Source: an uncultured virus (IMG/VR IMGVR_UViG_3300030433_003054) (lineage: Duplodnaviria > Heunggongvirae > Uroviricota > Caudoviricetes). Taken from it: 20,000 nt of DNA. Location: the IMG/VR virus record IMGVR_UViG_3300030433_003054. The stretch is one strand, 5' to 3'. Positions 6,096 through 20,000 of this stretch are shown here, piece after piece. Under the pieces are notes generated by a model. That model was not told the DNA's origin. It was given only the letters and a program-made list of their open reading frames with translations, and ran no database searches. Numbering within the stretch: the first letter of the stretch is position 1; every line of letters starts with the position of its first letter. The translations under genes were made by a program, and so were the position numbers.

Positions 6096-6096
6096 C

Positions 6097-7416
6097 TTAA
6101 TCCTCTAATGCTCTGAATCGTGGTAACAGAGCTTGTATTATCATATTATCTTTCTGCACCGAACGCATGAGGATATCTACCCTCTTATCAGATTTGGATT
6201 TGCCTTCGGAGCATAGACTTTTGTCTAGCAATCCCTTTTTCCGAAAAAGCCGATATATCGCATCAACCATATCAACAAAGTTTTGTCGGGTATTTTCCTG
6301 AATATATCGTCGTTCTTTCTTTGTGAATTTGGTCTTTTTAACGGGCTTTTTAAAGGAAGCATTGGGATCACCAATATCTTTTCGCACCTGAGCTTGTGCC
6401 TGCTTGGTGCTTAGACCCTTCCATTTATATTTCCCTAATTTCTCTTTCAGGCCGTACCATTCCCCCATTGCATGACGATATTGGGCTGCCCATCTATCCT
6501 CTAATGCTTTCTCTAAGCGGTTTATTGCTCCTCCCCCTTTTTTGAAATTGGTGTCAGCCCACTCTCTATTCGTTTTAATTTTTTGCCGTAAAGAAAGAGG
6601 AATTATACTGTTCTCATCTATCGGATCAGCCCATATTGAGGACTTACAATCTCCACCACAAAGAAGAGAGAGAAAAGCTTTTGTCTTGTCCTTCGCTTTA
6701 ATTACAGAGCATAGTTGAGGTTTTATTATTGACCACAGTGTTTTGTAATACTCATTTTTATCTTTATTGAGCATTACCTCCTGAACGGATTTGCTAAATT
6801 CGTCCCATTCCCCTAAATGTGCTCTAAATTCCGTCCTATTAGGATCATTGACGTATACCAAATACCCATATTTTCTCTTAATTGCACTTGTACCAAACGA
6901 TGTATTAGGGTCTTTTGCATGAGTTAATTCGTGACGAATCACTCTTTTTAGAGAGTTCATGCTATTCCAGTACACTAATGGATCAGAGATATAAGTTCTT
7001 GCAAATGAATCTTTATGAGCATACCCATTAACATAAACATCAATAGCCATTATTGACTTTCTTCTGTCGCCCCATGTTCTAGGGCCAGCATCATATCTTT
7101 CACCGCTTCGATGATCTTTGTATATTTCAATTCCCTGTACTCCACTAACAGGATCAAATAATTTCCATTCCTCAGTATCAGAATAAGCACTTAATTTTTT
7201 ACCAATAATCCTGAATCTTTGTTCTCTTTTAGGAGTGCGCCCAGTATGAGGAGAAGAGGGTACAAAATCTTTGGAGAATAGTCTATCGTTCTCTATTCGT
7301 TCTCCTGATTCCTTCCATTCTCCAAATATCAGACCTTCGATGTGCGCTATGGCTTCATCGAATACTGCTTGATCTTCGGGTGATAGCTTTATGGGATTAG
7401 GATTGTCTGTGTACAT
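6097..7416 (-). CDS. Putative zincin-like metallopeptidase (HEXXH), paralog 2
   Basis: VIRHELTHAKDP (HELTH at 6919-6933) with downstream YVNDPNRTEFRAH supplying a candidate third ligand Glu. The start overlaps the upstream stop (TAATG). Clearly similar to the adjacent gene. Confidence 0.75.
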   Translation of the reverse strand: MYTDNPNPIKLSPEDQAVFDEAIAHIEGLIFGEWKESGERIENDRLFSKDFVPSSPHTGRTPKREQRFRIIGKKLSAYSDTEEWKLFDPVSGVQGIEIYKDHRSGERYDAGPRTWGDRRKSIMAIDVYVNGYAHKDSFARTYISDPLVYWNSMNSLKRVIRHELTHAKDPNTSFGTSAIKRKYGYLVYVNDPNRTEFRAHLGEWDEFSKSVQEVMLNKDKNEYYKTLWSIIKPQLCSVIKAKDKTKAFLSLLCGGDCKSSIWADPIDENSIIPLSLRQKIKTNREWADTNFKKGGGAINRLEKALEDRWAAQYRHAMGEWYGLKEKLGKYKWKGLSTKQAQAQVRKDIGDPNASFKKPVKKTKFTKKERRYIQENTRQNFVDMVDAIYRLFRKKGLLDKSLCSEGKSKSDKRVDILMRSVQKDNMIIQALLPRFRALED

Positions 7417-8609
7417 TAATCCTCCAAAGACTCAAATCGTTGTAACAGAGCTTGTATTATCATCTGATTTTTAGGCTTGTGAACCGAACGCATGAGAATA
7501 GCTGCCTTCTTATCAGATATCCGTTCATACTGCGCATCATCGGATATACAAATTGAGGGGTCTAGTAATCCCTTTTTAGAAAAGAGAGAATAGATTGCAT
7601 TGATCATATCGGTGTAATTATCTTTTCGATAGGCCCGTATCCGATTGCGCTCTTTCTTTGTGAATTTGGTCTTTGGCTTAGGTTTTCGCCCACCTTCTTT
7701 ACGAAATTTATCTAGTTGTGCAAAATAGACCTGTTCCCAATATTTTTTATGCTGTCCTTCATAAAAGTCGATGATGCTCTCTATCTCATCATCGTCAACC
7801 GTCGCAAAATTTTTATTGTGCACCAAATTTCTAGCCAATTGATCGGGTACAAATCCCTCTCCTGACTCCATGTATCTGATAAATCGCTTGTTAAAATTCT
7901 TTCTGCCCTTATGATTCAACACACGAGAGCACCAGCTATCCCTTATTTTCTCCCATACATCTTTGTAATACTCATTTAAATTACGATTTGCATAAACAAA
8001 CTGTATCTCTGACGTTAGATTATCCCATTCACTCAGATGAGAGCGGAATTCTGCTCTCTTAGGATCATTGATATAGGTTCCAAATCCGAATTCATTCGAA
8101 TATGCACTTGTTCCACCAGTCGCAATCGCTTGTGTACCAATCCTCTTTTTCGTGGGGTCTTTTGCATGCGTTAATTCGTGACGGAGAGTGTTTTTAAAAC
8201 CCAAATACGAATTCCAAAAAGAATATGGCTCAAAAGTCTTTGCCCACTCAAAATCTTTTTTTTTCGGCCAGCCATTTAAATATACGAATAAGTGTAGTCT
8301 TGTGACTCTATGTGTTTCGGTTTTTCTAAATGTTTTTAATTCACCATATGTAAAGCCAAAGAGATATTTGTTCTTATTATGCTCCCTTTTAGAACCCTTT
8401 ACAGTAATCGTTAAGGGAATTGGGCCTGTTCCTGCACGATCGATTATTACATCTTTCTCATAAATTAGTGTATTGGCTACTTGTCCTCTCTGAGTCGCCC
8501 ATTTACCGAACATCAAACCTTCTAGTGTATCTAATATTTCATCATATATTTCTTGCTCTTTATGAGAGAGCTTTATCGGATTCGGATTTTCTACATATTG
8601 GATATTCAT
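7416..8609 (-). CDS. Putative zincin-like metallopeptidase (HEXXH), paralog 1 (397 aa from the revised start)
   Basis: TLRHELTHAKDP (HELTH at 8166-8180) and YINDPKRAEFRSH. Start moved to ATG 8609 (MNIQYVENPNPIKLS) because it aligns with the paralog N-terminus MYTDNPNPIKLS, and the longer ORF would run through a terminator and the upstream gene. Confidence 0.75.
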   Translation of the reverse strand: MNIQYVENPNPIKLSHKEQEIYDEILDTLEGLMFGKWATQRGQVANTLIYEKDVIIDRAGTGPIPLTITVKGSKREHNKNKYLFGFTYGELKTFRKTETHRVTRLHLFVYLNGWPKKKDFEWAKTFEPYSFWNSYLGFKNTLRHELTHAKDPTKKRIGTQAIATGGTSAYSNEFGFGTYINDPKRAEFRSHLSEWDNLTSEIQFVYANRNLNEYYKDVWEKIRDSWCSRVLNHKGRKNFNKRFIRYMESGEGFVPDQLARNLVHNKNFATVDDDEIESIIDFYEGQHKKYWEQVYFAQLDKFRKEGGRKPKPKTKFTKKERNRIRAYRKDNYTDMINAIYSLFSKKGLLDPSICISDDAQYERISDKKAAILMRSVHKPKNQMIIQALLQRFESLED

Positions 8610-8620
8610 AATTTTGCCTA

Positions 8621-8655
8621 GAAATAAAAGAGGGGAGGGAGATAACCCCCTCCCC
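8621..8655 (-). terminator. Rho-independent terminator after the 883-aa gene
   Basis: Minus strand GGGGAGGGGG-TTAT-CTCCCTCCCC (10-bp stem with one G-U pair) followed by TCTTTTATTT. Confidence 0.8.
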
Positions 8656-8682
8656 AAACACAAAGGAGATCTGAGTATGTGT

Positions 8683-11334
8683 TTAATAATATCTGCGTCG
8701 TCTAGCGGTATTTCGCCTAGTACGGTGACGTGGATTCGATTTTGTACCGACAATCTGCTGAAAGGTTTTGCCTTCGCTGAGGAGTTTTCGAACCTTGTCT
8801 TCCACAGCGGGAACGTCTTGGGTCTGATATCGCTTCATGGTTTTTGCGATATTATCCACTAAGTCTTGCTGTTTTTTCTGTATCTTAACAAGCTCGGCTT
8901 TGAGTGCTCCCGTTTTACTAGCAATCATCTTTTTCAATATAGGGCCAAATCCCTTAATGCTTTGAAAAAGGGTCAATCCATTGAGCCAATCAAAGATATC
9001 TCTATCAATTTTCTGATCTTTATTCCCCACTTTTATCGTTTGCTGTGGGTATTTAAATTTTTCATCAGGGTTTTTTTTTGAGGGTACATAAAAGTCGTAT
9101 AACGGTTGCTCTGAATAGAGATGGTTATGATCTCTGACACTCATGGGATATGCAAAGTGCATCTGTGGATTCTGTTTGAGCGAAGCCAATCCTTCGGCCC
9201 CTTTATCCAATGCTCCCACTATTCCCTGTAAGAGTCGTCTATCTTCCTCAGACAGTCCATCACTTTGAGTCGCACCGCCAGTTTGAGTCGCACCGCCAGT
9301 TTCGGGTTGACCAGTAAGTTTCTCTTCTTTGTCCTTTATTGCCTCATTCATTTTCTTTTGAAGAGTCTTAAAAGTCTTAGCTGTTGTTTTGTATCCAGCA
9401 TCTTTTAGAGCTTTTTGAATAATCTTAGCGGCATCAGGATATTTGTTGCCTGAATTAATGAGTCTATCAAATGCTTTGTCTATGTAGTCCACACTAAAAT
9501 CAATTTGCTGTTGATCTCCTCTTTTAATCTTCTCATCAAGACCTTCGAAATTGTCAGCAATAGTGGTCGCATCATCTTTTGCATTTTCTAGGGTATATGA
9601 TTCTTTAAACGGCTCTGCGGAGATAGTTACATAACTCTTTATTGTACTTTCCTCCCATGATGGAGTATCTTTGCTCCACATAGGAATATCAAATTTTTCC
9701 TCCACTAGATTGTAATTTTTCTCTAATACAGATTCCAGTTTAGCCACTAGATCATCATACTTCTTTTCAGTGTTTAAAGGTTCGGTTGATTCAATAATCA
9801 AGCTGTAAGTTCCGTTTCCACCAATAGAATCACTATAAAATTGTACTACTGTTCCTTTTTTACTCACACCTTTAATTGAGGTCAGCTTAGATTCTAAGTC
9901 CTTTTCCACCTTCGAAATTAATGTTTTTGATAGCTTTTGTGACTTTTGAGGCTGTGGTGGCTGTGGTGGCTGTGGTGGTGCGACAGTTTTACCTGTTGCT
10001 TTTGCTGCGTCCCGTATAAGCTCTCTATACGAATCGGAGAATGCATCAATATTTGATACACCCACCAATCTAGCTTGACCAGCCAGATCGGAGAAAAATG
10101 CTACCTCTGCGCTGACCTGCTTGGGAGTCGATGAGCCAATTTCTAGGCGCATCGGTACACCATCTTGTATATAGATAACATATCGACCTACAAAGACGTT
10201 TCCATCAGCAAGGTTGTCCATAAAAGACTCAAAGCTGTTTATTTTTTTCGGGGGGTTGAATTTATAGGCCAGTCCAGCACAATGAGGATTCTTTTTACCA
10301 TGCGTCGGGCAATGAGGATTCTTTTTCGTCCCTGCACAATGGCAATGAGGATTGTTGCGACTAGGTACAATTTCGTAATCTGCGTCTTTCAAATCCGCAT
10401 CAGGTATGATGTACATATCCAAATAGTCTATAAAGGTTTTAGGAGCTTTATAGACACCCTCTGAATCATATTCTGAAAAGGATTCCAAATCCCCTAGAAT
10501 ATCCTCTACCTCATATCCCTCTGAACCTAAATATTTGATAGTACCCTTGACTTTGCTACCTCCCGTCAAGAGTAATAAAACATTTCCCATAGAGGAATCA
10601 TAAACAATAGCCTGATAAGGAATACCCTTATGTTCTCCATAAAACTGAGAATATTTTGCATCACGTCCTAGACGATCCAGTTTCGCTAATGTTTGATATA
10701 CCTTGTGGATATCCGATTCGATTTGCTTTTCAGTCGTATATCCCTTTTTGAGCATTTTTCTTAGCCCTTTAAGGTTATCGACAATTGTTTTCCCATCTAT
10801 AACAGGGTTGTGGTGTGTTTGCATTGGGTTGTCCTGTAAAGTAAAATTTAGTGCCTGTTTAAAACTTTTAAAATGATGCAATCTAGGTGGTTCGCCACCA
10901 TATCGTCGCTCATCTATCGTTTCATACCGCTCTCGTGCGTCCTGATACTGTTCCCAGTATTGTTTCGCTTTTGCAAGCTCCAATGGATCACCAGTACGAT
11001 GATATTCGTTCTTAGCTTTTGCAAAAAGCATCGCATAGGCCCCTATTCGGTGTCCATCTCCATCAGGAGTATCTGATTTGCTCTCAAAGATGTTTTTTTT
11101 GTATGGAATTGCCATTGTACCAATAATTGCTTTAATCCCTGTATCGTCACCGAAGGGGATAGTCCTAAAAGACTTGGGTTTAAAATGCTGTGGGTCTATT
11201 TGTCTGAATCGGAGATACCGCTCTGTTTTATCGACCTTCGGAGCAATGTAATCGTTATCACGAAGCCATTTTTTAGCCTGTGTGATATTCCAATCATCAC
11301 GATCGAAGAGGACTGACTGAACGGTGGTACTCAT
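8683..11334 (-). CDS. Modular 883-aa putative virion protein with an N-terminal Tlr6F-like domain; segments separated by NP motifs and low-complexity linkers; Arg-rich C-terminus
   Basis: The N-terminal ~72 aa VQSVLFDRDDWNITQAKKWLRDNDY...VDKTERYLRFRQIDP...GIKAIIG resembles my recollection of the Tlr6F family. Also has NPHC x3, PPQ x3, TGGATQ x2 and the tail SNPRHRTRRNTARRRRYY. Confidence 0.7.
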   Translation of the reverse strand: MSTTVQSVLFDRDDWNITQAKKWLRDNDYIAPKVDKTERYLRFRQIDPQHFKPKSFRTIPFGDDTGIKAIIGTMAIPYKKNIFESKSDTPDGDGHRIGAYAMLFAKAKNEYHRTGDPLELAKAKQYWEQYQDARERYETIDERRYGGEPPRLHHFKSFKQALNFTLQDNPMQTHHNPVIDGKTIVDNLKGLRKMLKKGYTTEKQIESDIHKVYQTLAKLDRLGRDAKYSQFYGEHKGIPYQAIVYDSSMGNVLLLLTGGSKVKGTIKYLGSEGYEVEDILGDLESFSEYDSEGVYKAPKTFIDYLDMYIIPDADLKDADYEIVPSRNNPHCHCAGTKKNPHCPTHGKKNPHCAGLAYKFNPPKKINSFESFMDNLADGNVFVGRYVIYIQDGVPMRLEIGSSTPKQVSAEVAFFSDLAGQARLVGVSNIDAFSDSYRELIRDAAKATGKTVAPPQPPQPPQPQKSQKLSKTLISKVEKDLESKLTSIKGVSKKGTVVQFYSDSIGGNGTYSLIIESTEPLNTEKKYDDLVAKLESVLEKNYNLVEEKFDIPMWSKDTPSWEESTIKSYVTISAEPFKESYTLENAKDDATTIADNFEGLDEKIKRGDQQQIDFSVDYIDKAFDRLINSGNKYPDAAKIIQKALKDAGYKTTAKTFKTLQKKMNEAIKDKEEKLTGQPETGGATQTGGATQSDGLSEEDRRLLQGIVGALDKGAEGLASLKQNPQMHFAYPMSVRDHNHLYSEQPLYDFYVPSKKNPDEKFKYPQQTIKVGNKDQKIDRDIFDWLNGLTLFQSIKGFGPILKKMIASKTGALKAELVKIQKKQQDLVDNIAKTMKRYQTQDVPAVEDKVRKLLSEGKTFQQIVGTKSNPRHRTRRNTARRRRYY
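9264..9299. repeat. 18-bp tandem duplication (TGGATQ x2 linker)
   Basis: TTTGAGTCGCACCGCCAG x2, in frame within the 883-aa gene. Confidence 0.9.
9950..9976. repeat. 9-bp tandem repeat x3 (Pro/Gln linker)
   Basis: GGCTGTGGT x3 encoding PPQ repeats on the minus strand. Confidence 0.9.
10280..10353. repeat. Three spaced copies of CAATGAGGATT encoding NPHC
   Basis: Copies start at 10280, 10310 and 10343. Peptide: RNNPHCHCAGTKKNPHCPTHGKKNPHCAG. Confidence 0.85.
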
Positions 11335-11336
11335 AG

Positions 11337-12194
11337 CTATCTCTTAGGGTTCCAACGCAATTGTCCTACTGCGGGAGAATTAAAGAGCTTCCAATATGCT
11401 TTATGATCTTCTTTATGGGTGATCAAACGCACTCTTACTGTAATAGGTCTTTTACCTAATTTATCTTTGAGGTATTTGTAAGCACCATCGTTTTCAAAAG
11501 AATACACCGCTTCACCTGTTCTTTTATCTTTTCCCTTCACTTGGTGGGTTATGTATTTTACATTGATCTTAAGTTTGCTTCTTGTACTTGATGTTCGACC
11601 TGTTTTTGTTTCCCGACTTGTGTATAATGGAATGAGAGGATCATAAGCCTTTTTGATACCTGTCATGTATGCTCTTGCTGCGGCTCGTGCTGATGGCGCA
11701 CTTGCAAATCCACCCAATATTCTCTCCTTGTCATTTCCCTCATACAGGATTACCATGTAGAGAGTCGATATTTGACCCATCACCTTATCTTCAATATCCC
11801 GAACAGCTACCTTTGATGCTTGTTCTGCTTGTCGTGTATACCTTGCTTGGGGAGATCGGTACTCTTTGGACGGTTGCTTTAAAAACTCTAACATTTCTGC
11901 AAATCTTAGAAGAGTTTTATATTTCTGTCCACCTTTCTTAAACAGCTTCGCTCCCTCTTCATCGGTCGATTTATCTCTGATATCTCGTATGAATTTTGCT
12001 CCACTTTGCAAAGCACTCGGAGAAAATAGCTCAGGGAAATTGCCTAGATATTGCTCAATATGCTTCAAAGTCACGTTCGATGTATCCTTCGCTAGACTCT
12101 TGTTGCCGTTTTGAAGCACCTTAAGGATCGCTTGACGAATCGCTGATTTTCCTGTGGGTACAAATGCTTTCTTTTTCGTTGGGTTGTGTTTCAT
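11337..12194 (-). CDS. Basic hypothetical protein (285 aa), possibly DNA-binding virion protein
   Basis: AAGGA upstream of the ATG; Lys/Arg-rich; begins MKHNPTKKK and ends RWNPKR. Confidence 0.75.
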   Translation of the reverse strand: MKHNPTKKKAFVPTGKSAIRQAILKVLQNGNKSLAKDTSNVTLKHIEQYLGNFPELFSPSALQSGAKFIRDIRDKSTDEEGAKLFKKGGQKYKTLLRFAEMLEFLKQPSKEYRSPQARYTRQAEQASKVAVRDIEDKVMGQISTLYMVILYEGNDKERILGGFASAPSARAAARAYMTGIKKAYDPLIPLYTSRETKTGRTSSTRSKLKINVKYITHQVKGKDKRTGEAVYSFENDGAYKYLKDKLGKRPITVRVRLITHKEDHKAYWKLFNSPAVGQLRWNPKR

Positions 12195-12205
12195 TTTATT
12201 AATCC

Positions 12206-12589
12206 TTACTGTGATGCGGTGATGCGTACATAGATACGGGCTTGGAGTCCAGATGATGTTTCAGCTTGTATGCGTACATATTGGAGAGCCATATCATAAT
12301 TTGAGAATACATAATTGCCTGAACTCATAACCAGCGACAATTGAGGATTCAGATTAAAATACCTAACATCGGCCCCCTCTTGTGCGATACCGCCTTGCAA
12401 AGTAATTTCCACTACCTGAGTCGTGTTGTCACGACTCTCGATCTGTATGGCGATTCTAGGCAATCCCTGTACATTTAAACACTCTGTCCGTACTGTATCG
12501 CCACCAGCTTGTAATTGTATCTGATATTCTTTTGATACAGCACTAGCCGATATTTCGCTTGAACCTATTGCATTGTTACGAATAACCAT
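12206..12589 (-). CDS. Small beta-rich protein (127 aa), candidate jelly-roll minor capsid/vertex protein
   Basis: Alternating hydrophobic beta-strand pattern (RIAIQIES, VVEITLQGG, YVRIQAE, ARIYVRITA); lies in the putative capsid cluster. Function is inference. Confidence 0.6.
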   Translation of the reverse strand: MVIRNNAIGSSEISASAVSKEYQIQLQAGGDTVRTECLNVQGLPRIAIQIESRDNTTQVVEITLQGGIAQEGADVRYFNLNPQLSLVMSSGNYVFSNYDMALQYVRIQAETSSGLQARIYVRITASQ

Positions 12590-12596
12590 GATGAAC

Positions 12597-13175
12597 CTAG
12601 TAAAAGGAGGAGAATATCGTAAATTGAGGGTCAGCAGCTAAAACCTCACCCCATAAAAAATCTAATTTCACTTGCCAATATCGAATAGGATACTCGCCCG
12701 TCGGCTCAAACGATATGTACGTCGCATTTCGTCCACCCTGAGACACAACGAATTGATCACTGACATTGACACAATCTGTCACCTGTACAACAGACTGAGA
12801 ATTATTGGGAGAGATGAATTCTAGGGCCTTAACATCTAGTGATTTTGTTGCACCATCACCAATATTATTGATCACAACATGCAACCTTCCACCACGTCCA
12901 GAACCAGCATATTTCCATATGGCGACTCCCTCTTCTGTACCTCCTCCCGTACTAGATCGAAGGTCAGGGCGAAGATCGAAAACAGGACTTGACCACGTTG
13001 CTTGTTTCCAGTCAGGAGCAGCAGCATTAGCCAGCATCAAGGCAACCTCACCACCGTCCCATAGGCCGATAGGCATACTATTGGGACGGGGATAGGGCAT
13101 TGAGCCGTTAGGATTACGCAGGTATCCTTTATTATTGGGATCTTGGGGTACAAATCCCGTATCTCTAAAATACAT
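12597..13175 (-). CDS. Beta-rich protein (192 aa), candidate minor capsid/penton-type protein
   Basis: Coupled to the upstream gene (TAATG). WSSPVFDLRPDL...GRLHVVI...IRYWQVKLDF looks like a beta-sandwich. Function is inference. Confidence 0.6.
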   Translation of the reverse strand: MYFRDTGFVPQDPNNKGYLRNPNGSMPYPRPNSMPIGLWDGGEVALMLANAAAPDWKQATWSSPVFDLRPDLRSSTGGGTEEGVAIWKYAGSGRGGRLHVVINNIGDGATKSLDVKALEFISPNNSQSVVQVTDCVNVSDQFVVSQGGRNATYISFEPTGEYPIRYWQVKLDFLWGEVLAADPQFTIFSSFY

Positions 13176-13768
13176 TAGCCACCTACTGTATAATTAGAGC
13201 TTCCTCTCATTTCTAGCACGACCAATACAATATCAATACGAAGATTCGGAAATAGAGGACGAATCCCAATTTGCATAGAGGAACCAGTATTAATCGCATA
13301 GCCTGTACCACCCAATTCAGCAGGTTCGGAACCACTACCGCAAATTGTCTTTGCTAGACGTTCTCCGACCAATATCTGATCTCCCGTTGTATAGCTCACA
13401 GAGATGAGGAATTGAGAAAGAGGGTCAGTAGTAAGGGCCACACCAGTAGTAAGCTGTGCATCAGCATTGATAGCTATAAGACGACAAGGCAAATCAAACT
13501 GTATACGTTGGATCGATTGGGTATTTGCCGCACCATTTAAAAGACCCGTTGAGTAGTATCGGGTTTGATATCCAACGGTTTCATTTGTGGAATAAAACGG
13601 GGCCGTCGGGTAAAATGGAGCACGAACAAATTTAGGCTGATCAGGTTGGGTTCCTCCCATATCCTGAGCATAGGGCATTTGTACAAGAGCTTGCTGTGGC
13701 TGTGCGGGACGTTGTGGCTCTTGTCGTCCGTACATTGTCGGCATATTTCCATAAGGATTTTTATACAT
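13175..13768 (-). CDS. Beta-rich protein (197 aa from the revised start), candidate second/small single jelly-roll capsid protein
   Basis: AGGAG-N7-ATG at 13768 (MYKNPYGN). A Gln/Pro-rich N-arm precedes beta strands (IQRIQFD, RLIAINA, FLISVSY, MQIGIRP, LRIDIVLVVLE). Confidence 0.6.
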   Translation of the reverse strand: MYKNPYGNMPTMYGRQEPQRPAQPQQALVQMPYAQDMGGTQPDQPKFVRAPFYPTAPFYSTNETVGYQTRYYSTGLLNGAANTQSIQRIQFDLPCRLIAINADAQLTTGVALTTDPLSQFLISVSYTTGDQILVGERLAKTICGSGSEPAELGGTGYAINTGSSMQIGIRPLFPNLRIDIVLVVLEMRGSSNYTVGG

Positions 13769-13788
13769 CTTTGATCTCCTAGATGCTG

Positions 13789-13824
13789 AATGGGGCAAGG
13801 CATATACAATGCACTTGCCCCATT
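13789..13824. terminator. Strong intergenic hairpin downstream of the putative major capsid gene (partial terminator or mRNA-stabilising stem)
   Basis: AATGGGGCAAG-GCAT-ATACA-ATGC-A-CTTGCCCCATT inverted repeat. The T-tract is on the + strand side (TTTTGTTTT); on the minus strand only TT follows. Confidence 0.65.
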
Positions 13825-13856
13825 TTGTTTTAAAAGTGTAGGATCAACCTAATAGA

Positions 13857-14558
13857 TTATCCAATCTCAATAACGTTCTTATAGAATCCGAAGAGAGCAA
13901 CCTTAACAAATGATGCGTTAGCACCAACGTTGGCGGCACGACTACCGAAACGGAGAAGGATAGAGAAAGTGGTTCCACCGGGTAGGCTTACAGGGTGACG
14001 ACGATACAAGAAGATGTTTGCCGCACCGTTGTTCATGTGACCAGTGTCAGCCTGAGTAGGGGCTGCTTGGTTATCAAGAGCAACACCAACCGCACCGAAA
14101 GCACCGCCACCAGCACCAATAAGATGAAGAGGAGCAATTTCAACGATTGTTTGAGTAAAGTCCCAACTCAGAACAGCATTTTGCTGAATATTCAAAAGCT
14201 CAGTAACAAGAGCATTGGTATTGATAGGTGCGTTCATGGCGAACCCAGCTACACTATCGTCAGCGGCTGAACCTTTACCGACAAGTGCGGAAACACCGTA
14301 AATATCGAATGCAAGCCCATTACTGACCCGACCGGCCTCTTTTTGGGAGGTTTCTGCAATTGTCAAGGAGCTTTGAAAGCCCTGCCCTGAACTAGAAAGA
14401 GGAACGGAAAATAAACGAAAAGTGCTGTTTGCAATAACTGATGCACCAGTAAGAAGCTGTGTACTCCAAATGGTAGTTTCGCCATAACGGAAAAGATTTT
14501 TAGGCTGAGAGAATGGTACTGCGGGGATTGATCCCTGCCCTTCTTTTAAATATTGCAT
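13857..14558 (-). CDS. Putative major capsid protein, single jelly-roll type (233 aa from the revised start)
   Basis: Strong AGGAG RBS before ATG 14558. Gly/Ala-rich, low-charge, beta-rich sequence (FRLFSVP..GQG..LTIAETS..AGRV..FDIYGVS; PVSLPGGTTFSILLRF; FVKVALFG). Followed by a hairpin. Size fits SJR capsid proteins rather than HK97 or DJR. Fold is inference. Confidence 0.6.
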   Translation of the reverse strand: MQYLKEGQGSIPAVPFSQPKNLFRYGETTIWSTQLLTGASVIANSTFRLFSVPLSSSGQGFQSSLTIAETSQKEAGRVSNGLAFDIYGVSALVGKGSAADDSVAGFAMNAPINTNALVTELLNIQQNAVLSWDFTQTIVEIAPLHLIGAGGGAFGAVGVALDNQAAPTQADTGHMNNGAANIFLYRRHPVSLPGGTTFSILLRFGSRAANVGANASFVKVALFGFYKNVIEIG

Positions 14559-14597
14559 GATAACTCCTATAAGCAATAAAATGTTTAAAATGTTTGA

Positions 14598-15938
14598 TTA
14601 TCGTGCCGCACCGATCATGGCGACACCTGAGTAACTATCTGATTCGTATGCTAGTCCAGCCATATCCATTGCGATACCTGAATACCCTTTTGAGGCTCCT
14701 TGATCGAATTTTTGCTGTGCTGCATTGATAGCGGCAATTTTGATTTGAGAGATGGCACGAATTCGGTCAGGTGCGCTCATACGACAAAGTTTAGCGAATC
14801 TATCCCAACCCAATACTTTGATTAACCAGCCCCATCTGTGGCCCATTTTACCAGCATATCGTGATGATCCATCGTGGGAGGAGGAACGATAGGGGCACGC
14901 ACCGAAGATTGCCATGTATCGCTCAGGCCCAGCCGAAGCTGCCATGCGTTCTTTTTGAGAAAGATCGTGACCAACGTGCATAGCATCAACCATCGAAGCA
15001 TCTCCGTACATACCCATATGAGCACCCGCCATAGGTACAACATCATAAGCACCGCCATCACCCATAAAAGCAAGTCCATCGACCGCTTTTTTGCCTTCCT
15101 CTACGATTGCTTCTGCTGAGGCTGCTGACTTGGGGAATAAAGTACCTGCTTTGTGCATAAGATAAAGTTTATGGAATTGTGCCGCACCCGATACTGTTGC
15201 GATCGCTACCGCTGCTGCATTGGCTGTTTGAGCTTTAACCAGCTTGCTCTTTTTGAGAGCATAATTGGTAATTGCTGCCAGTCCCAGACCAACGGCAAAG
15301 ATTCCAGCATATGATTCGCTCTTTTTAAGCCATTGAGGTGCCCATGTTGCTGCTTGGAGCTTCTTAGCTACATAATCATACGACATAGTGAAAGGAACGA
15401 TCACAGCCATACCGATCACAGAACCGCCTAGATATGGAGCCGCCTGTTTGAGCAATGGCACTTTTTTCATGGCTTTTGTGACAGGTTTGAGCAATGCTAA
15501 TTCGGGATTGCGCTTATATGCTGCGTTTCTACGACGACGCATGTATGCTCTACGAGCGGTTTTTCGACGCATACCCTTTTTTGTTCCGTTTTTACGACGT
15601 TTCAGAGCAAGTGCATTTTTACGACGTTTCAGAGCAAGTGCATTTTTACGACGTTTCAGAGCAAGTGCGTTCTTTTTGCGCTTGTGGGCCGCATTTTTTT
15701 TGCGCTTGTGGGCTGCGTTTTTACGACGTTTCATTTTAAGAGGATTCAAACGCAAAACGATAGGCTTCTTTGCTGTTTTTCTTCTCTTAACAGTTCTTCG
15801 CTTCCTAGCATTTGTTTTTCGCTTGACAGGCTTTCTTCGCTTGACAGGATTGCGCTTTTTTCGCTTGGGATTCGATACAAAAAGTGCACCCAATGAGGAC
15901 TTTCTGCGTCGGGGATTGGATCGTAACACGAGGGCCAT
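14598..15938 (-). CDS. Basic core/membrane protein (446 aa from the revised start): Arg/Lys-repeat N-terminal region, about three hydrophobic helices, Gly/Met-rich C-terminal region
   Basis: AGGAG-N5-ATG at 15938 (MALVLRSNPRRRK). About 145 aa of KRRKN-type repeats, then hydrophobic segments YLGGSVIGMAVIVPFTM, YAGIFAVGLGLAAITNY and ANAAAVAIATVSGAA. Confidence 0.75.
   Translation of the reverse strand: MALVLRSNPRRRKSSLGALFVSNPKRKKRNPVKRRKPVKRKTNARKRRTVKRRKTAKKPIVLRLNPLKMKRRKNAAHKRKKNAAHKRKKNALALKRRKNALALKRRKNALALKRRKNGTKKGMRRKTARRAYMRRRRNAAYKRNPELALLKPVTKAMKKVPLLKQAAPYLGGSVIGMAVIVPFTMSYDYVAKKLQAATWAPQWLKKSESYAGIFAVGLGLAAITNYALKKSKLVKAQTANAAAVAIATVSGAAQFHKLYLMHKAGTLFPKSAASAEAIVEEGKKAVDGLAFMGDGGAYDVVPMAGAHMGMYGDASMVDAMHVGHDLSQKERMAASAGPERYMAIFGACPYRSSSHDGSSRYAGKMGHRWGWLIKVLGWDRFAKLCRMSAPDRIRAISQIKIAAINAAQQKFDQGASKGYSGIAMDMAGLAYESDSYSGVAMIGAAR
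15589..15717. repeat. In-frame tandem repeats: 27 bp x3 (ALALKRRKN) plus 24 bp x2 (AAHKRKKN)
   Basis: TTTTTACGACGTTTCAGAGCAAGTGCA x3 (15589-15669, last base variant), then two near-identical 24-mers. Confidence 0.9.
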
Positions 15939-15960
15939 TTTTACTCCTATTTTCATTGAT

Positions 15961-16004
15961 AGTTTGCACCGTTTTGTTTTTGAGTGCAATTTATTTTTTT
16001 GGTT
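15961..16004 (-). promoter_or_regulatory. Putative sigma70-type promoter for the core/capsid genes
   Basis: Minus strand: A-rich UP-like tract, TTGCAC (15989-15984), 17-bp spacer, CAAACT (15966-15961). It overlaps a TTGCAC-N14-GTGCAA inverted repeat. Confidence 0.5.
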
Positions 16005-16023
16005 TTGATCAATAGTGATCAAT
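16005..16023. promoter_or_regulatory. 19-bp TGATCA-N4-TGATCA element, copy 1
   Basis: TTGATCAATAGTGATCAAT is the exact reverse complement of 18931-18949; intergenic. Confidence 0.65.
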
Positions 16024-16025
16024 GG

Positions 16026-16613
16026 TTAATTGACTATTCCTTCGATTTGGCTCTTATAATTTCCACCACAGAGAAAAACTTCACCATCTTTTGCTACCGC
16101 TAGAATAGGTTTGTTTGTCCATTTTTCGTTGCGTTTATATGGTTCTCCGAACGCATGTATGTAATTGGTCAGTCCATCGGACTCTTTGATAGTCCGATAG
16201 ACGATATGGGTGCAATATCCCAGTGGTTTAGCCTTGATATCAGGGTATCGTCGATTGGCCTGATATCCTGACGATAATTTGGCTATCTCTTTTAATTTTT
16301 GAAGAGGCTGTGGATTCTCCTCATAGAGCTTGGCGAATTCTTTTTGTGTTTCAGGGTCAAGTTCGATCATCAAGGGTTTTCTCTTCTTTGCATCATCGAA
16401 AAGTAAATGAGAGGTATGAAGATGAGATTCAGGGATTATCAGGACGATATCAGGCTCCTGTTTTCCATCTTCCTGACTATCCGCTAAATGAATTTCGCAT
16501 ACACGTCCATACTCCACCATATGATTTGAGTGGTGTTTCGATCGTGTATTGATCTTCTTTGACGGTTCCGTACCCCAATGATAGATACGATATGTTTCAG
16601 CTAATTTGCTCAT
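16026..16613 (-). CDS. Hypothetical protein (195 aa), probably virion-associated
   Basis: ATGA overlap with the upstream gene. Distinctive C-terminal pattern IVYRTIK..DG..NYIHAFGE...PILAV..G..FLCGGNY....EGIVN. No function assignable. Confidence 0.7.
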   Translation of the reverse strand: MSKLAETYRIYHWGTEPSKKINTRSKHHSNHMVEYGRVCEIHLADSQEDGKQEPDIVLIIPESHLHTSHLLFDDAKKRKPLMIELDPETQKEFAKLYEENPQPLQKLKEIAKLSSGYQANRRYPDIKAKPLGYCTHIVYRTIKESDGLTNYIHAFGEPYKRNEKWTNKPILAVAKDGEVFLCGGNYKSQIEGIVN

Positions 16614-17482
16614 TTCCGTTTGAGGAGTAAAACAGCAAGGGCCGCTACCCCACCAGCGATCAAGAGAGTATTGGTGTTCATTCCTGATTTGCTTCCTGAG
16701 CCACCTTGTGTAGCCGCATCTATCAGAGATGGGAGATATCCAGCCTGAGCAAGAGATCCGAATCGTGCGATTAATTCTCTACGACACGCATTATACATTC
16801 GAATACGCATGCGAACCACCATAGGATACTGAGCTAATGGGCCTGTGCCGACAAGACTTTGAATTAATTGTCCTGACTCTAATTTGGGAATATCAGATTC
16901 GGTTGGGAACGTTGAAGGAACCAATTTTGATACATAAAATTCCATACGTTGTACCAATTGTTCAGTTGGGATCTCTCCCACAGGTACACCGTCAATGCTA
17001 GTCCGTCGTACAGAGGTATTAGATGATCCCCCTGACCCGATACTTTTTGCCTTATCATAAATTTGTTTGCCAGTATCGATCGCTTGCTGACCCTCTTCAC
17101 TTTGTGACCACTCATAGATACTGAGTGCGGTTCCGATAAGATCAAATCCTCCCTCTTCGCCCGCAGCATCAGCAGCAGCACCACCGACGAGATCACCAGT
17201 ACCAGCACCGTCGGGATTGCCATAAGCCCCTATCGACGATGGGAATAGGCCCTGTGAAAATAATGTTTGGGGTGGATATGCTGTAATTGCCGCAGCAGTA
17301 TAGGGAGATGAAGAAGAATACATACCATTACCATCGGGAAGGAGATTAGGATCTCCACGATACATAAAGTGGTCGCCACCATAATAATCGGGAGGGGAGT
17401 AAGATTTTGTGCCATAGTCGTACTCTGACACTCTTGGGGAGGCTGTCGCTAATCGGACTCTCCCATGTACATAATTAGTCAT
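16610..17482 (-). CDS. C-terminally membrane-anchored protein (290 aa), putative virion membrane protein
   Basis: GAGG RBS and ATGA overlap. Tyr/Pro/Gly-rich N-terminus, Gly/Ser linkers, and the C-terminal anchor NTLLIAGGVAALAVLLLKRK. Confidence 0.75.
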   Translation of the reverse strand: MTNYVHGRVRLATASPRVSEYDYGTKSYSPPDYYGGDHFMYRGDPNLLPDGNGMYSSSSPYTAAAITAYPPQTLFSQGLFPSSIGAYGNPDGAGTGDLVGGAAADAAGEEGGFDLIGTALSIYEWSQSEEGQQAIDTGKQIYDKAKSIGSGGSSNTSVRRTSIDGVPVGEIPTEQLVQRMEFYVSKLVPSTFPTESDIPKLESGQLIQSLVGTGPLAQYPMVVRMRIRMYNACRRELIARFGSLAQAGYLPSLIDAATQGGSGSKSGMNTNTLLIAGGVAALAVLLLKRK

Positions 17483-17730
17483 TTTTTGCCTCTCATTAGG
17501 TTTAAAGCGATACCTGACACGAATCCTATTGCATGGATTCGTGTTTTATTATCCATCACAGGTATTCCATTGATTTTAGGATTCCAATTTTGGAGCTTTT
17601 GAGCGACAAATTTTTGAAAAAGGTCGTCGTCAACAGTGATTCCTCTTTTTTGTAGCTCATCGACGGCACTTTGAAGATGGCTCAATAGAGAGATGGCGAA
17701 CGGGAGTACATGTCGAGTACCTAATTTCAT
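17479..17730 (-). CDS. Small hypothetical protein (83 aa)
   Basis: GGAG RBS, ATGA overlaps at both ends, amphipathic/hydrophobic termini. Confidence 0.7.
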   Translation of the reverse strand: MKLGTRHVLPFAISLLSHLQSAVDELQKRGITVDDDLFQKFVAQKLQNWNPKINGIPVMDNKTRIHAIGFVSGIALNLMRGKK

Positions 17731-18098
17731 CGTATCTCTCCATATGCAAGCTCATAGGCCGCATAGTATATCCATTTAAAGTGACGAATCGCATTTCCTT
17801 CGTCGGCTAAACGATAAGCCTCTGTCCACATCTGAACCTCTATCGGCTTTGATTTGTGATTCTCAGCGATATCGTGTTGACGAGCATAATTTCCCAATTG
17901 CTCCTCCCATATCTGATTCATCACATTTGCCGCCTGTTCCAGTGCCAATAGAATTTTGGGATCACGATTTTTAGCATGGTTAAATGCAAGACTTGACCAG
18001 CGATCGGAACCATAGCTGTTTTTTAGCTGTGCTTCTTTGGCTCTTTTATACGATGTTTCAACGGTGTATCTATCAATGTTTTTGACTAATTCTATCAT
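17727..18098 (-). CDS. Hypothetical helical protein (123 aa)
   Basis: AAGGA RBS upstream of the ATG; fits the operon spacing. Confidence 0.7.
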   Translation of the reverse strand: MIELVKNIDRYTVETSYKRAKEAQLKNSYGSDRWSSLAFNHAKNRDPKILLALEQAANVMNQIWEEQLGNYARQHDIAENHKSKPIEVQMWTEAYRLADEGNAIRHFKWIYYAAYELAYGEIR

Positions 18099-18110
18099 GT
18101 TGTGTCCTTG

Positions 18111-18881
18111 TTATGAGTTTCTTCGTCTTATCTCTTTTAATTTTGCCCTGAGATAATCACGAAATTCGGCAATGGCTATACTTGTAACCGCAGCCACAAT
18201 AATAGTCGGTATCAATGTTTTAGGGTGTAACCCCTTCTTGACCTGACTGATTATAGATTTTTCCTCCTCTTGGGATATGGGAGCTTGGCCCAGTTCAGGC
18301 AATGATGCACCCGAACCATTTTTAGCCTGTACAATATCCCAACCTAATTTTGCGCTTTTTAGGGTAGGTTCCGCATATACCCATTGAGATGGTTTAAATG
18401 GTGGATATCCAATGATTAAATATATATGGCTCCATTGACCGTCCTTCATGGGAGTCCCTTCTATCCAGCGATCAATGCGACCGTTACAACGACCAGCCAG
18501 AACATACCGATAGGGGAGATTCACCGATTCACACATCGCACCCAATAACAAAGCCATATCATCACAATCCCCATACCTGACTCTCAGAGTATAGGTAGGC
18601 TCTTGCAATCGTTCATTTGGTTCATTGACGTAGTAAATATGAGTCTGTACCCATTTTAAAAGAGCTTTTGCCTGTCCCTTATAGTCTCTTGGCTTTACTC
18701 TATTGGTGCGAAAAATATGTACACACAAAGTCGCTATCTCAGGATTCTGACCAGCATAGGACGACACTTGACGTAAAAAAGCCATGCGTTGCGCCTGATT
18801 TTTTTGCGACCAGTCGTTTATTCTCCATGTTTTAGGAGCTTGGGGTGTTGTACCGAAATGTATACGTTCCATCTTATCCAC
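18111..18881 (-). CDS. Transglutaminase-like cysteine enzyme (candidate virion maturation protease) with a C-terminal hydrophobic anchor
   Basis: WVQTHIYYVNEP..ERLQEP..TL..RYGDCDDMALLLGAMCESV (Cys at 18564-18566), WSHIY (His) and WVYAEPT (acidic residue) give the transglutaminase-core motif order. C-terminal LIPTIIVAAVTSIAIAEF. The start is GTG 18881 or ATG 18872. Confidence 0.85.
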   Translation of the reverse strand: MDKMERIHFGTTPQAPKTWRINDWSQKNQAQRMAFLRQVSSYAGQNPEIATLCVHIFRTNRVKPRDYKGQAKALLKWVQTHIYYVNEPNERLQEPTYTLRVRYGDCDDMALLLGAMCESVNLPYRYVLAGRCNGRIDRWIEGTPMKDGQWSHIYLIIGYPPFKPSQWVYAEPTLKSAKLGWDIVQAKNGSGASLPELGQAPISQEEEKSIISQVKKGLHPKTLIPTIIVAAVTSIAIAEFRDYLRAKLKEIRRRNS

Positions 18882-18900
18882 AGTATCTATTGGAGTATAT

Positions 18901-18909
18901 ATTATATCA
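18901..18909 (-). promoter_or_regulatory. Extended -10 promoter (TGnTATAAT) upstream of the transglutaminase-like gene
   Basis: Minus strand TGATATAAT. The -35 position (GTGTAG) is poor and abuts the TGATCA repeat element. Confidence 0.65.
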
Positions 18910-18926
18910 GTACGATCTGTTAGCTA

Positions 18927-18950
18927 CACTATTGATCACTATTGATCAAT
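18927..18950. promoter_or_regulatory. 19-bp TGATCA-N4-TGATCA element, copy 2 (within a 10-bp CACTATTGAT tandem repeat)
   Basis: CACTATTGAT-CACTATTGAT-CAAT; the core ATTGATCACTATTGATCAA is at 18931-18949. Confidence 0.65.
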
Positions 18951-19308
18951 CTGATGGGCCGCCAGAGGGATCTGTTCTTTGTTCTGTTGTACTCCCATAA
19001 GCCGTCGGTGTAAGCTCTAAGGATTTGAATTTTATAGCTACACCAGCCAACGCAGCAAGGACTAAAAATGCGACAATAAACGTATAAAAGATCCGATTCG
19101 TACTTGTTCTAATATCAGAGCGCATGGATTCCATTTGTCGTTCAATCCGATCTCCCAGTGTTTTCATGGCGATATTTTGATGTTCGGTTTGAGTCTTAAT
19201 CGCATCTAAGAAATTCCGTTGAAGATCTTTGCGCTCCTTTGCGGAGTCTTTGCGTTCTTGCTGTATCAATTCGATGTAGTCTAGGCTATTTTGTGGAGCA
19301 GGGTGCAT
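18946..19308 (-). CDS. Small coiled-coil protein with one TM helix (120 aa from the revised start); holin-like architecture
   Basis: GAGG-N8-ATG at 19308. A charged heptad-like helix precedes IFYTFIVAFLVLAALAGVAI. The holin-like call is inferred from architecture only. Confidence 0.6.
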   Translation of the reverse strand: MHPAPQNSLDYIELIQQERKDSAKERKDLQRNFLDAIKTQTEHQNIAMKTLGDRIERQMESMRSDIRTSTNRIFYTFIVAFLVLAALAGVAIKFKSLELTPTAYGSTTEQRTDPSGGPSD

Positions 19309-19338
19309 AAAAAAATCCTCTCTTATCAAAGAGAGGAT
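19309..19338 (-). terminator. Terminator-like hairpin that contains the RBS of the next gene
   Basis: Minus strand ATCCTCTCTT-TGAT-AAGAGAGGAT (perfect 10-bp stem), then TTTTTT and directly ATG. Confidence 0.7.
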
Positions 19339-19374: not shown

Positions 19375-19848
19375 TCATTCAAGGTGTACCAGCCTCCCAT
19401 GTTTTGAGTATATCGACAAAATTTTGTGCTGATCATAGGTAAGATGCAGAATTCCCTCATCGTTCATAAAAACAACCTCAGAATTAAAACATAGAGGGTG
19501 ATCATCACTGAGCTTGTCGTCCAGCTTCATCGACAATAATAATTCCACGTTTAAGTTCGCAACGATGTTTAAAAGAGCGATCATATTAGTTTTTCGCAAA
19601 TCAGAAGGGAGAGGACGTTCTGATAAGCACTTTTTGAATTTGGCCCATGCACTAGATGAAAAACGTCGGTGACTTGGAGAAAATAGGCTCAAATGCTTTT
19701 CCACGTCACAATCGTCGGCTGATTTGGCTTTTTTTAGAATTGACCGAACACGTTGCATATAGGATTTTGCTGTACGTCCTGATAATCCATTGCTCTCCAA
19801 TAACCAATTTTCAAAGTATTCTAGGTCACTATCTTTGATTATAAGCAT
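19375..19848 (-). CDS. Protein with an integrase N-terminal SAM-like (core-binding) domain and no catalytic recombinase domain
   Basis: GGAG RBS. LEYFENWLLESNGLSGRTAKSYMQRVRSIL matches the F..WL....GLS..T...Y...V..F pattern of XerC/D-type N-termini. Only 157 aa; no HxLR/Tyr catalytic motif seen. Confidence 0.6.
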   Translation of the reverse strand: MLIIKDSDLEYFENWLLESNGLSGRTAKSYMQRVRSILKKAKSADDCDVEKHLSLFSPSHRRFSSSAWAKFKKCLSERPLPSDLRKTNMIALLNIVANLNVELLLSMKLDDKLSDDHPLCFNSEVVFMNDEGILHLTYDQHKILSIYSKHGRLVHLE

Positions 19849-20000
19849 CGCAATTCTCCAATCGTCACGTCAAATTGGTGACGTTTAGCAAATCGCCCAA
19901 AGTGGAAGCGATGGATTCTCCGTATGCGCTCATGCAGGGTTGATCTCCATAGTCGCCTATCATTGAGTCGATCGAACAGATCTCTGAGGTCGTGGACGTA
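19839..20000 (-). CDS. Probable 3' end of an upstream gene (frame ambiguous)
   Basis: Two minus-strand frames are open from the window edge, one ending TAA at 19839 and one ending TGA at 19865. I cannot decide between them. Confidence 0.3.
   Translation of the reverse strand, partial: YVHDLRDLFDRLNDRRLWRSTLHERIRRIHRFHFGRFAKRHQFDVTIGELRCL

Follow-up and report, generated by a model that had tools for sequence, protein, structure and literature searches.

A probable virion-morphogenesis module with predicted jelly-roll proteins and a protamine-like protein in an undescribed lineage of large bacterial viruses

We analyzed a 20,000-nucleotide stretch of DNA (hereafter the window) from an uncultured virus, IMG/VR record IMGVR_UViG_3300030433_003054, which carries a block of structural-type genes at positions 12206-18881; the flanks of this block were also examined. 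Numbering is that of the window on one strand. Eighteen open reading frames (ORFs) of at least 80 amino acids tile the window, which has a G+C content of 36-46%, and all 18 lie on the minus strand, so that transcription would run from position 20000 to position 1. Scans against the Pfam, PHROGs, and NCBIfam libraries gave above-cut-off family matches in only three of the 18 ORFs, namely to the transglutaminase-core, ddrB-ParB, and integrase SAM-like domains described below; none of the ORFs matched a family of terminases, portals, capsid proteins, tail proteins, or packaging ATPases. NCBIfam and PADLOC searches of the window proteins returned nothing meaningful, a tRNA scan of the window found zero tRNAs, and positions 12000-19000 showed no nucleotide similarity to any of 50,697 GenBank phage records. 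An earlier note on this DNA had described the block as the virion module of a divergent, possibly unclassified bacterial lineage; our analysis supports a virion-type module from an unclassified lineage of bacterial viruses, with two of the small proteins predicted to be jelly rolls. The ORFs named there are present on the minus strand where it placed them, with the right sizes when counted from the first ATG.

The core of the block is a run of six genes encoding proteins of 195, 474, 233, 197, 192, and 127 amino acids. We collected related loci from IMG/VR (six), GTDB genomes (five, all contigs of metagenome-assembled genomes), and JGI metagenomes (ten), and found the same gene order in the window and in all eight related records with enough flanking sequence, some of which carry additional ORFs inserted within it. 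In an all-against-all comparison of these nine records, the families of the 195-, 474-, 239-, 207-, and 192-residue proteins (239 and 207 being the lengths of the 233- and 197-residue proteins from upstream starts) were each present in 9/9, while the transglutaminase-like, 123-residue, and 83-residue genes further upstream were common to five or six. The closest relative, L042, has a capsid-like protein about 80% identical to that of the window and retains all 18 window genes in synteny. Just upstream of its module lie genes for a DUF3987 primase and a NikA-like/ribbon-helix-helix (RHH) protein; the primase places the window’s own clade with the large-genome type of relatives described below. 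An alignment-based scan of IMG/VR with the capsid-like protein recovered six loci and a single-protein scan none, and tblastn with the same protein gave zero matches in the 50,697 GenBank phage records or in 72,556 plasmids. At the profile level, the 233-, 197-, and 192-residue families are mutually unrelated (hhalign probabilities of 0.1-0.4%), and are thus not detectable paralogs.

Two related loci, L007 (7777-9205) and L008 (5429-6893), carry a tandem duplication of the capsid-like gene, with products 44-58% identical to the window protein, as expected if capsomers can use two paralogous single jelly rolls. In a third, L009, an HNH/NUMOD4 homing endonuclease gene lies between the capsid-like and second jelly-roll genes, and an SLT lytic transglycosylase gene follows the homolog of the 127-residue protein (L009 11123-12013 and 13689-14294).

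The candidate major capsid protein (13857-14576) comprises 239 residues from a TTG start or 233 residues from the ATG at 14558, and is predicted to form a single jelly roll. No other protein of the module is as conserved; it has 373 relatives at E ≤ 0.001, and the 120 of these matches that were listed come from ENA, JGI, Logan, NCBI, and Tara sources, are 50-99% identical to it, and are all unnamed or annotated as “hypothetical”. Directly downstream, the second jelly-roll protein (13175-13798; 207 residues, or 197 from the ATG at 13768) has 319 relatives and is a candidate penton or second capsid protein. AlphaFold modeled the 233-residue protein as a beta sandwich with one helix (predicted local distance difference test score, pLDDT, 73.3; predicted template-modeling score, pTM, 0.70; 49-row alignment), and the 197-residue protein as a beta sandwich preceded by a disordered N-terminal arm rich in Pro and Gln (pLDDT 74.9; pTM 0.68; 50 rows). 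Both are predicted to be beta sandwiches of the jelly-roll type. The earlier note had listed four adjacent beta-rich proteins; the predicted structures bear this out for these two, and for these two only.

Foldseek found nothing in the Protein Data Bank (PDB) at E ≤ 0.001 for either model, and we used VIA-align to compare both with solved structures. The 233-residue model scored highest against Sulfolobus polyhedral virus 1, SPV1 (6oj0_A, score 8.7, r.m.s.d. 3.3 over 134 residues; 6oj0_T, 8.1 in a wide search), followed by KHP40 cement (7.8), Satellite panicum mosaic virus (7.5), a Pam1 capsid-associated chain (7.4), Vaccinia D13 (7.1), HHIV-2 6h82_b (6.6), STIV (6.5), PRD1 P3 (6.3), SH1 6qt9_C (6.0), and P23-77 VP17 (5.9) and VP16 (5.2). 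Its top matches in BFVD were capsid proteins of small DNA viruses, with E-values of 2.9e-4 to 8.9e-4 and low TM scores. For the 197-residue model the top match was HHIV-2 6h82_b (7.7; r.m.s.d. 3.8 over 115 residues), ahead of a tail-fibre domain of phage 7-7-1 (7.5), SPV1 (6.9), and PRD1 P3 (6.6). The HHIV-2 penton protein is a single beta barrel with disorder over its first 40 residues (PMC6414509). The modeled range of 6h82_b, residues 39-173, fits this description, and we therefore read chain b as the HHIV-2 penton.

Profile searches against PDB sequences gave three chance-level matches for the 233-residue family (E 0.41-3.1) and zero matches for the 197- and 192-residue families. We found no homologs of 420-2000 residues with two fused barrels, which is weak evidence by the search tool’s own note. 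A predicted complex of the 233- and 197-residue proteins (score 0.00, mark 0.32, run without controls) speaks neither for nor against binding. We rejected a reading of the jelly rolls as nucleoplasmin-like chaperones, as the 233-residue protein is not acidic (13 Lys/Arg versus 13 Asp/Glu) and is the module’s most conserved gene product.

Upstream of the capsid-like gene lies the gene for a protamine-like basic protein (14598-16022; 474 residues from a TTG start, probably 446 from the ATG at 15938). With 109 Lys/Arg versus 22 Asp/Glu, it has the basic character that the earlier note gave its “basic core-like protein”. Its poly-basic N-terminal region of about 170 residues contains tandem repeats and is followed by two hydrophobic segments and a C-terminal globular domain; the net charges of its first four 50-residue blocks are +12, +27, +23, and +15. 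The repeats are visible in the DNA as three copies of a 27-nucleotide unit and two of a 24-nucleotide unit at 15589-15722 (TRF). All nine homologs have an N-terminal net charge of about +35 to +105, and in eight of the nine the hydrophobic segments come next. A conserved motif close to SGALFVxNPRRR(R) opens the protein in most relatives (window positions 15800-15938). From these sequence features we propose that the protein condenses DNA and tethers the genome to a membrane. Basic-context “NP” motifs recur elsewhere in the window and in G001-G004, L003, L005, L007, and L009. In the window they occur four times in the 474-residue protein, four times in an 883-residue protein (8683-11334), and once in a 285-residue protein (11337-12194), and NP itself occurs there at five times its expected frequency; judged from sequence, these motifs could be a DNA-binding or core-targeting signal.

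The remaining genes of the core run are less informative. The first encodes a 195-residue core protein (16026-16613), conserved in 9/9 records directly upstream of the basic-protein gene or with one small ORF between; it has no match in Pfam, PHROGs, NCBIfam, or PADLOC and no usable match in the ESM Atlas. The 192-residue protein (12597-13175), encoded after the second jelly roll and likewise conserved in 9/9 records, has 165 representatives at the 50% identity level (E ≤ 0.001). Its ESM Atlas model is poor (pLDDT 0.45), and leads from that resource are unnamed or below threshold, for example XepA and Bbp16 cement. The last gene encodes a 127-residue protein (12206-12589) that we linked to its positional equivalents with a hidden Markov model (HMM) of eight same-position ORFs from relatives; the model matched it at E 3.2e-14, and the next window ORF at E 1.3.

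The upstream half of the block encodes several proteins with membrane segments, which we called by hydropathy alone. The first widely conserved gene of the module specifies a 256-residue protein with a transglutaminase-core (papain-like) fold and a C-terminal anchor (18111-18881; Pfam Transglut_core, E 3.6e-10). The motifs G-D-C-D-D, W-x-H, and A-E/D-P are invariant in six of six aligned homologs, and all five homologs checked have the C-terminal hydrophobic segment; by these sequence criteria the protein could be a maturation protease or cross-linker. Next come two small conserved proteins, one of 123 residues (17727-18098; homologs in 6/9 records, no Pfam, PHROGs, or NCBIfam match) and one of 83 residues (17479-17730; homologs in 5/9), and a Gly/Ala/Ser-rich protein of 290 residues with a C-terminal anchor at residues 269-287 (16610-17482), of which only the first 54 residues are conserved in L042. 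Just upstream of the block, a second 127-residue protein (18946-19329) has one membrane segment (residues 80-98) and homologs in G001, G002, and L042. Hydropathy thus agrees with the earlier note on membrane-anchored proteins for the 290- and 256-residue proteins, and adds this one outside the block.

Longer related records were also scanned. G001, from IMG/VR, measures 72,988 bp and bears a direct terminal repeat of 127 bp; 73 of its ORFs were scanned in Pfam and 72 in PHROGs. G004 has 104,974 bp (110 ORFs in Pfam), and G005:C152 has 92,743 bp (112 ORFs in Pfam, 88 in the flank and 24 in L009). All three encode a family-A DNA polymerase, SNF2 helicases, and a PD-(D/E)XK nuclease; genes for Sak4-like ATPase, for a primase of the DUF3987 or VapE type, and for tyrosine integrase, methylases, and M15/M23/SLT hydrolases are each present in at least one of the three. 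G001 in particular encodes a family-A polymerase with exonuclease, a UDG-family protein, a PD-(D/E)XK exonuclease, an ATPase resembling Sak4, a primase with DUF3987, and an SNF2 helicase; it also encodes a tyrosine integrase, M15 and M23 peptidases, two NUDIX proteins, and an SMC/LmuB-like ATPase. The peptidoglycan hydrolases suggest bacterial hosts. The roughly 28 kb around the capsid-like genes of G001 has zero PHROG matches, and none of the three records contains bacterial housekeeping genes over its 73-105 kb.

In the same ORF scans of G001, G004, and G005:C152, we detected no terminase, portal, HK97 capsid, tail, FtsK/HerA, relaxase, or type IV secretion genes. Six-frame searches of G001-G004 with FtsK_SpoIIIE, Terminase_6N, TerL_ATPase, Phage_portal, and Phage_capsid were negative in all four; applied to 14 control genomes, the same searches were positive in 3 to 12. 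The lack of terminase, portal, and tail genes reported by the earlier note thus holds for the 18 window ORFs and extends to four long related records. The note had proposed to search the rest of the contig for a packaging ATPase and to confirm that terminase and portal are absent; in the relatives, G001-G004 and G005:C152 contain no detectable FtsK/HerA-type packaging ATPase, and terminase and portal are absent from the six-frame searches of G001-G004 and the ORF scans of G001, G004, and G005:C152. Two NUDIX ORFs of G001 did match a PHROG labeled “portal”, but through their NUDIX domain only. The P-loop proteins seen in the relatives are helicases, a Sak4-like protein, and the SMC/LmuB-like ATPase; a Walker-A scan picked up only the SMC-like and Sak4-like proteins and is incomplete, since its pattern failed to recognize the helicases.

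Taken together, we consider it probable that positions 12206-18881 and their flanks represent a virion-morphogenesis module from an undescribed lineage of large double-stranded DNA bacterial viruses. Jelly rolls, a protamine-like protein, and tail-anchored proteins encoded together are what one would expect if the particle is tailless and consists of a shell, a lipid layer, and a condensed DNA core. In our working model, the 233-residue protein, given its predicted fold, would form the capsomers of the outer shell, and the 197-residue protein with its flexible arm would form pentons or a second shell component. The 192- and 127-residue proteins, by their conserved position, may be further shell or vertex components. 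The protamine-like protein would neutralize and condense the genome via its poly-basic N-terminal region, and its hydrophobic segments would anchor this condensate to a lipid layer in which the tail-anchored proteins also sit. The Cys-His enzyme with the transglutaminase fold, itself membrane-anchored, may process or cross-link virion proteins. Because terminase, portal, and FtsK/HerA genes were not found in the relatives, it is probable that the genome becomes enclosed as it condenses and co-assembles with the shell, the route proposed for SPV1, and is not pumped into a preformed shell.

For the same reason, with no FtsK/HerA ATPase or other motor found, SPV1 is a better analogue than SH1 or P23-77. 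In SPV1, two single jelly-roll proteins build the outer shell, VP4 as hexamers and VP10 as pentamers; inside it are a lipid layer and a nucleoprotein coil of VP1 and DNA, and an ATPase is absent from the annotated genes (PMC8459092). The window lineage resembles it in having a putative DNA-condensing basic protein, no packaging ATPase among the genes scanned, and membrane proteins encoded among the structural genes. In contrast, SPV1 has a 20-kb circular genome, a hyperthermophilic archaeal host, and no encoded polymerase (PMC8459092), while the relatives described here span 73-105 kb and encode a family-A polymerase, helicases, primase, and peptidoglycan hydrolases. The 233-residue family also shows no sequence similarity to solved chains, and the basic protein is large, at about 450 residues, with hydrophobic segments and a globular C-terminal domain. 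Genome size, polymerase, and host thus argue against membership in the Portogloboviridae, and neither this assignment nor one to the SH1/P23-77 group is supported.

The lineage would share a tailless, membrane-containing bacterial phage layout with Tectiviridae, PRD1, PM2, and Autolykiviridae, but differs from PRD1- and PM2-type viruses of the Bamfordvirae in its capsid protein, since we model a single 233-residue barrel and found no 420-2000-residue form (itself weak evidence); even the tandem duplicates of L007 and L008 are separate genes rather than a double jelly roll. The double jelly-roll capsid proteins of PRD1- and PM2-type viruses are about 270-400 residues long, and an FtsK/HerA-type ATPase is encoded in their genomes of about 10-20 kb. 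A further, looser analogy is with adenovirus, which has a protamine-like condensed core, a cysteine maturation protease, a double jelly-roll hexon, a packaging ATPase, and animal hosts. Here the likeness would lie in the pairing of an Arg/Lys-rich, putatively DNA-condensing protein with a papain-like-fold cysteine enzyme in the structural module.

We weighed three other explanations. The main rival, which we regard as unlikely, is that these records come from a very divergent tailed phage (Caudoviricetes) whose HK97 capsid, portal, and terminase lie elsewhere or escaped detection, with the jelly rolls serving as decoration, cement, tail, or receptor-binding proteins and the basic protein as an internal head protein. 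Tailed phages have such replication genes, genome sizes of 73-105 kb, and terminal repeats, all of which weighs against our reading, and giant downstream ORFs are typical of such phages. Further points in the same direction are that the ESM Atlas neighbors of the 192-residue protein are unnamed clusters labeled mostly Uroviricota, that hallmark absence rests on HMM libraries, which very divergent families can escape, that our ORF sets were picked by length and third-position G+C (GC3) and may miss genes, that for the window's own genome the scans covered these 20 kb, and that IMG/VR CheckV completeness is 53% for G001 and 85% for G004. Moreover, both structure models are of moderate confidence (pLDDT 73-75) and cover only two of the four small proteins, with cement and fibre structures matching them nearly as well as the best hits; a 441-residue ORF of G001 has one weak match to a PHROG “tail protein” (E 6.4e-4 over 50 residues). 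Hydropathy is the sole basis for the putative internal membrane, and shell, membrane, and particle are all deduced here from genes. A tailed phage would nevertheless have to lack every detectable hallmark family in 73, 110, and 112 ORFs and in the six-frame searches of G001-G004, in which the controls were positive. The lineage-conserved genes of the window and L042 are all accounted for, and none is portal- or HK97-like in size or character. Finally, the 233-residue jelly roll is the most conserved protein of the module, which fits a major capsid protein better than a decoration protein.

Membership in the SH1/P23-77 group (Helvetiavirae, Singelaviria), with two vertical single jelly rolls, an internal membrane, and an FtsK/HerA-type ATPase, was the reading of the earlier note, and we now regard it as very improbable. 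The two adjacent jelly-roll proteins are of about the right sizes, and the module includes membrane-anchored proteins, as in SH1, HHIV-2, HCIV-1, and P23-77, where small jelly-roll capsid genes also adjoin one another; a penton with a disordered N-terminal arm is a further likeness to HHIV-2, given the best match of the 197-residue model. The families concerned, Sphaerolipoviridae, Matshushitaviridae, and Simuloviridae, have genomes of 16-31 kb, and the viruses share homologous packaging ATPases (PMC8328091); the ICTV's 2025 summary places the single-jelly-roll Helvetiavirae in the new realm Singelaviria (PMC12714852). The relatives examined here are instead 73-105 kb, several times larger, with their own family-A polymerase and no packaging ATPase found in G001-G004 or G005:C152. 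As to fold, both proteins yield jelly-roll models; SPV1 outscores every Helvetiavirae major capsid protein for the 233-residue model, including P23-77 VP16 and VP17 and SH1 6qt9_C, and none of the three family profiles has a sequence match to solved chains. Improbable too is a non-viral origin, whether in a mobile element (for example an integrative or conjugative one that carries polyvalent proteins) or in a cellular structure like a protein nanocompartment. An integrase and a ddrB-ParB polyvalent-type protein are compatible with it, as are NikA-like/RHH proteins (E 4.7e-8 in L042, above cut-off; E 6.5e-4 in G001, below cut-off) and homologs on contigs of 300-377 kb. The records scanned yielded no gene for a relaxase, VirB4, a coupling protein, or any other transfer function, while G001 has terminal repeats, endolysin-type M15/M23/SLT hydrolases and homing endonucleases are present, and housekeeping genes are missing over 73-105 kb. 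The absence of transfer genes together with the terminal repeats and lysis enzymes makes a non-viral element unlikely.

Within our preferred reading of a virion module from a large bacterial virus, a bolder version, to which we give slightly less than even weight, is that of a realm-level new bacterial lineage with genomes of at least 45 kb to more than 100 kb, a tailless single jelly-roll shell, no packaging motor, and DNA held on a membrane-anchored NPRRR protamine-like protein. Such viruses would be a five-fold larger bacterial counterpart of SPV1 and the largest tailless phages known. To our knowledge, only one archaeal family encloses a condensed nucleoprotein in a shell of jelly rolls without using a motor. 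Among the publications found, mostly as titles and abstracts, none describes large jelly-roll phages without terminase, and the non-tailed phages they report are small, including tailless and filamentous Vibrio prophages of less than 16 kb (PMC11630473). The capsid-like protein forms hundreds of 90%-identity clusters in marine and other metagenomes; if our reading is correct, virus-detection pipelines based on hallmark genes would be overlooking a widespread group. It would also mean that phage genome size is not tied to the HK97/portal/terminase machinery, and that the origins of jelly-roll capsids and of viral protamine-like DNA condensation could be studied in bacteria.

Downstream of the module, positions 1899-12194 are occupied by a block of large, fast-evolving proteins of 285 (basic), 883, two of about 440, and 1398 residues, which possibly are virion-borne or vertex proteins. 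All five are kept in the same order in L042, and only the 1398-residue protein has a match in distant relatives. The latter (1899-6095) has an N-terminal ddrB-ParB domain (Pfam E 7.3e-10), confirming the large polyvalent-type gene of the earlier note. The proteins of 439 and 445 residues (6097-7416 and 7416-8753) are tandem paralogs with 33% identity (E 2e-61) and have no match in Pfam, PHROGs, NCBIfam, or PADLOC; both carry the sequence RHELTHAKDP, an HExxH-type motif, and may therefore be zinc metallopeptidases. At the other end of the window, a 157-residue ORF (19375-19848) matches an integrase SAM-like N-terminal domain at E 6.5e-5.

The longer relatives share several other genes. An SMC/ABC-type ATPase of about 600 residues is conserved in G001 (2930-4756), G002 (34518-37232), and G004 (40447-42267), with AAA_23 matches and weak LmuB matches; its gene adjoins the integrase gene and, in G001, also that of a small helix-turn-helix protein. 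As the only non-replicative P-loop protein seen, it might conceivably help to condense or package DNA. A few genes upstream of the transglutaminase-like gene, G001 (38569-40596), G003 (20426-22144), and G004 (96473-99250) encode a coiled-coil protein of 570-925 residues with Glu/Arg-rich repeats, which in G001 and G004 has an acidic Asp/Glu tract at or near its C-terminus. We saw no equivalent in L042 or the window; the protein could be a scaffold or size-determining protein. Beside the polymerase gene of G005:C152 (L038 2451-5723) lies a 1090-residue ORF with a weak, below-cut-off match to intein splicing domains (E 3.5e-6). In G004 a UDG-family domain is fused to the family-A polymerase (32383-35091); in G001 the UDG-family sequence lies at the end of the record (72301-72988) and the polymerase at its start (1-2217), a split that would fit circular permutation or terminal redundancy of the genome.

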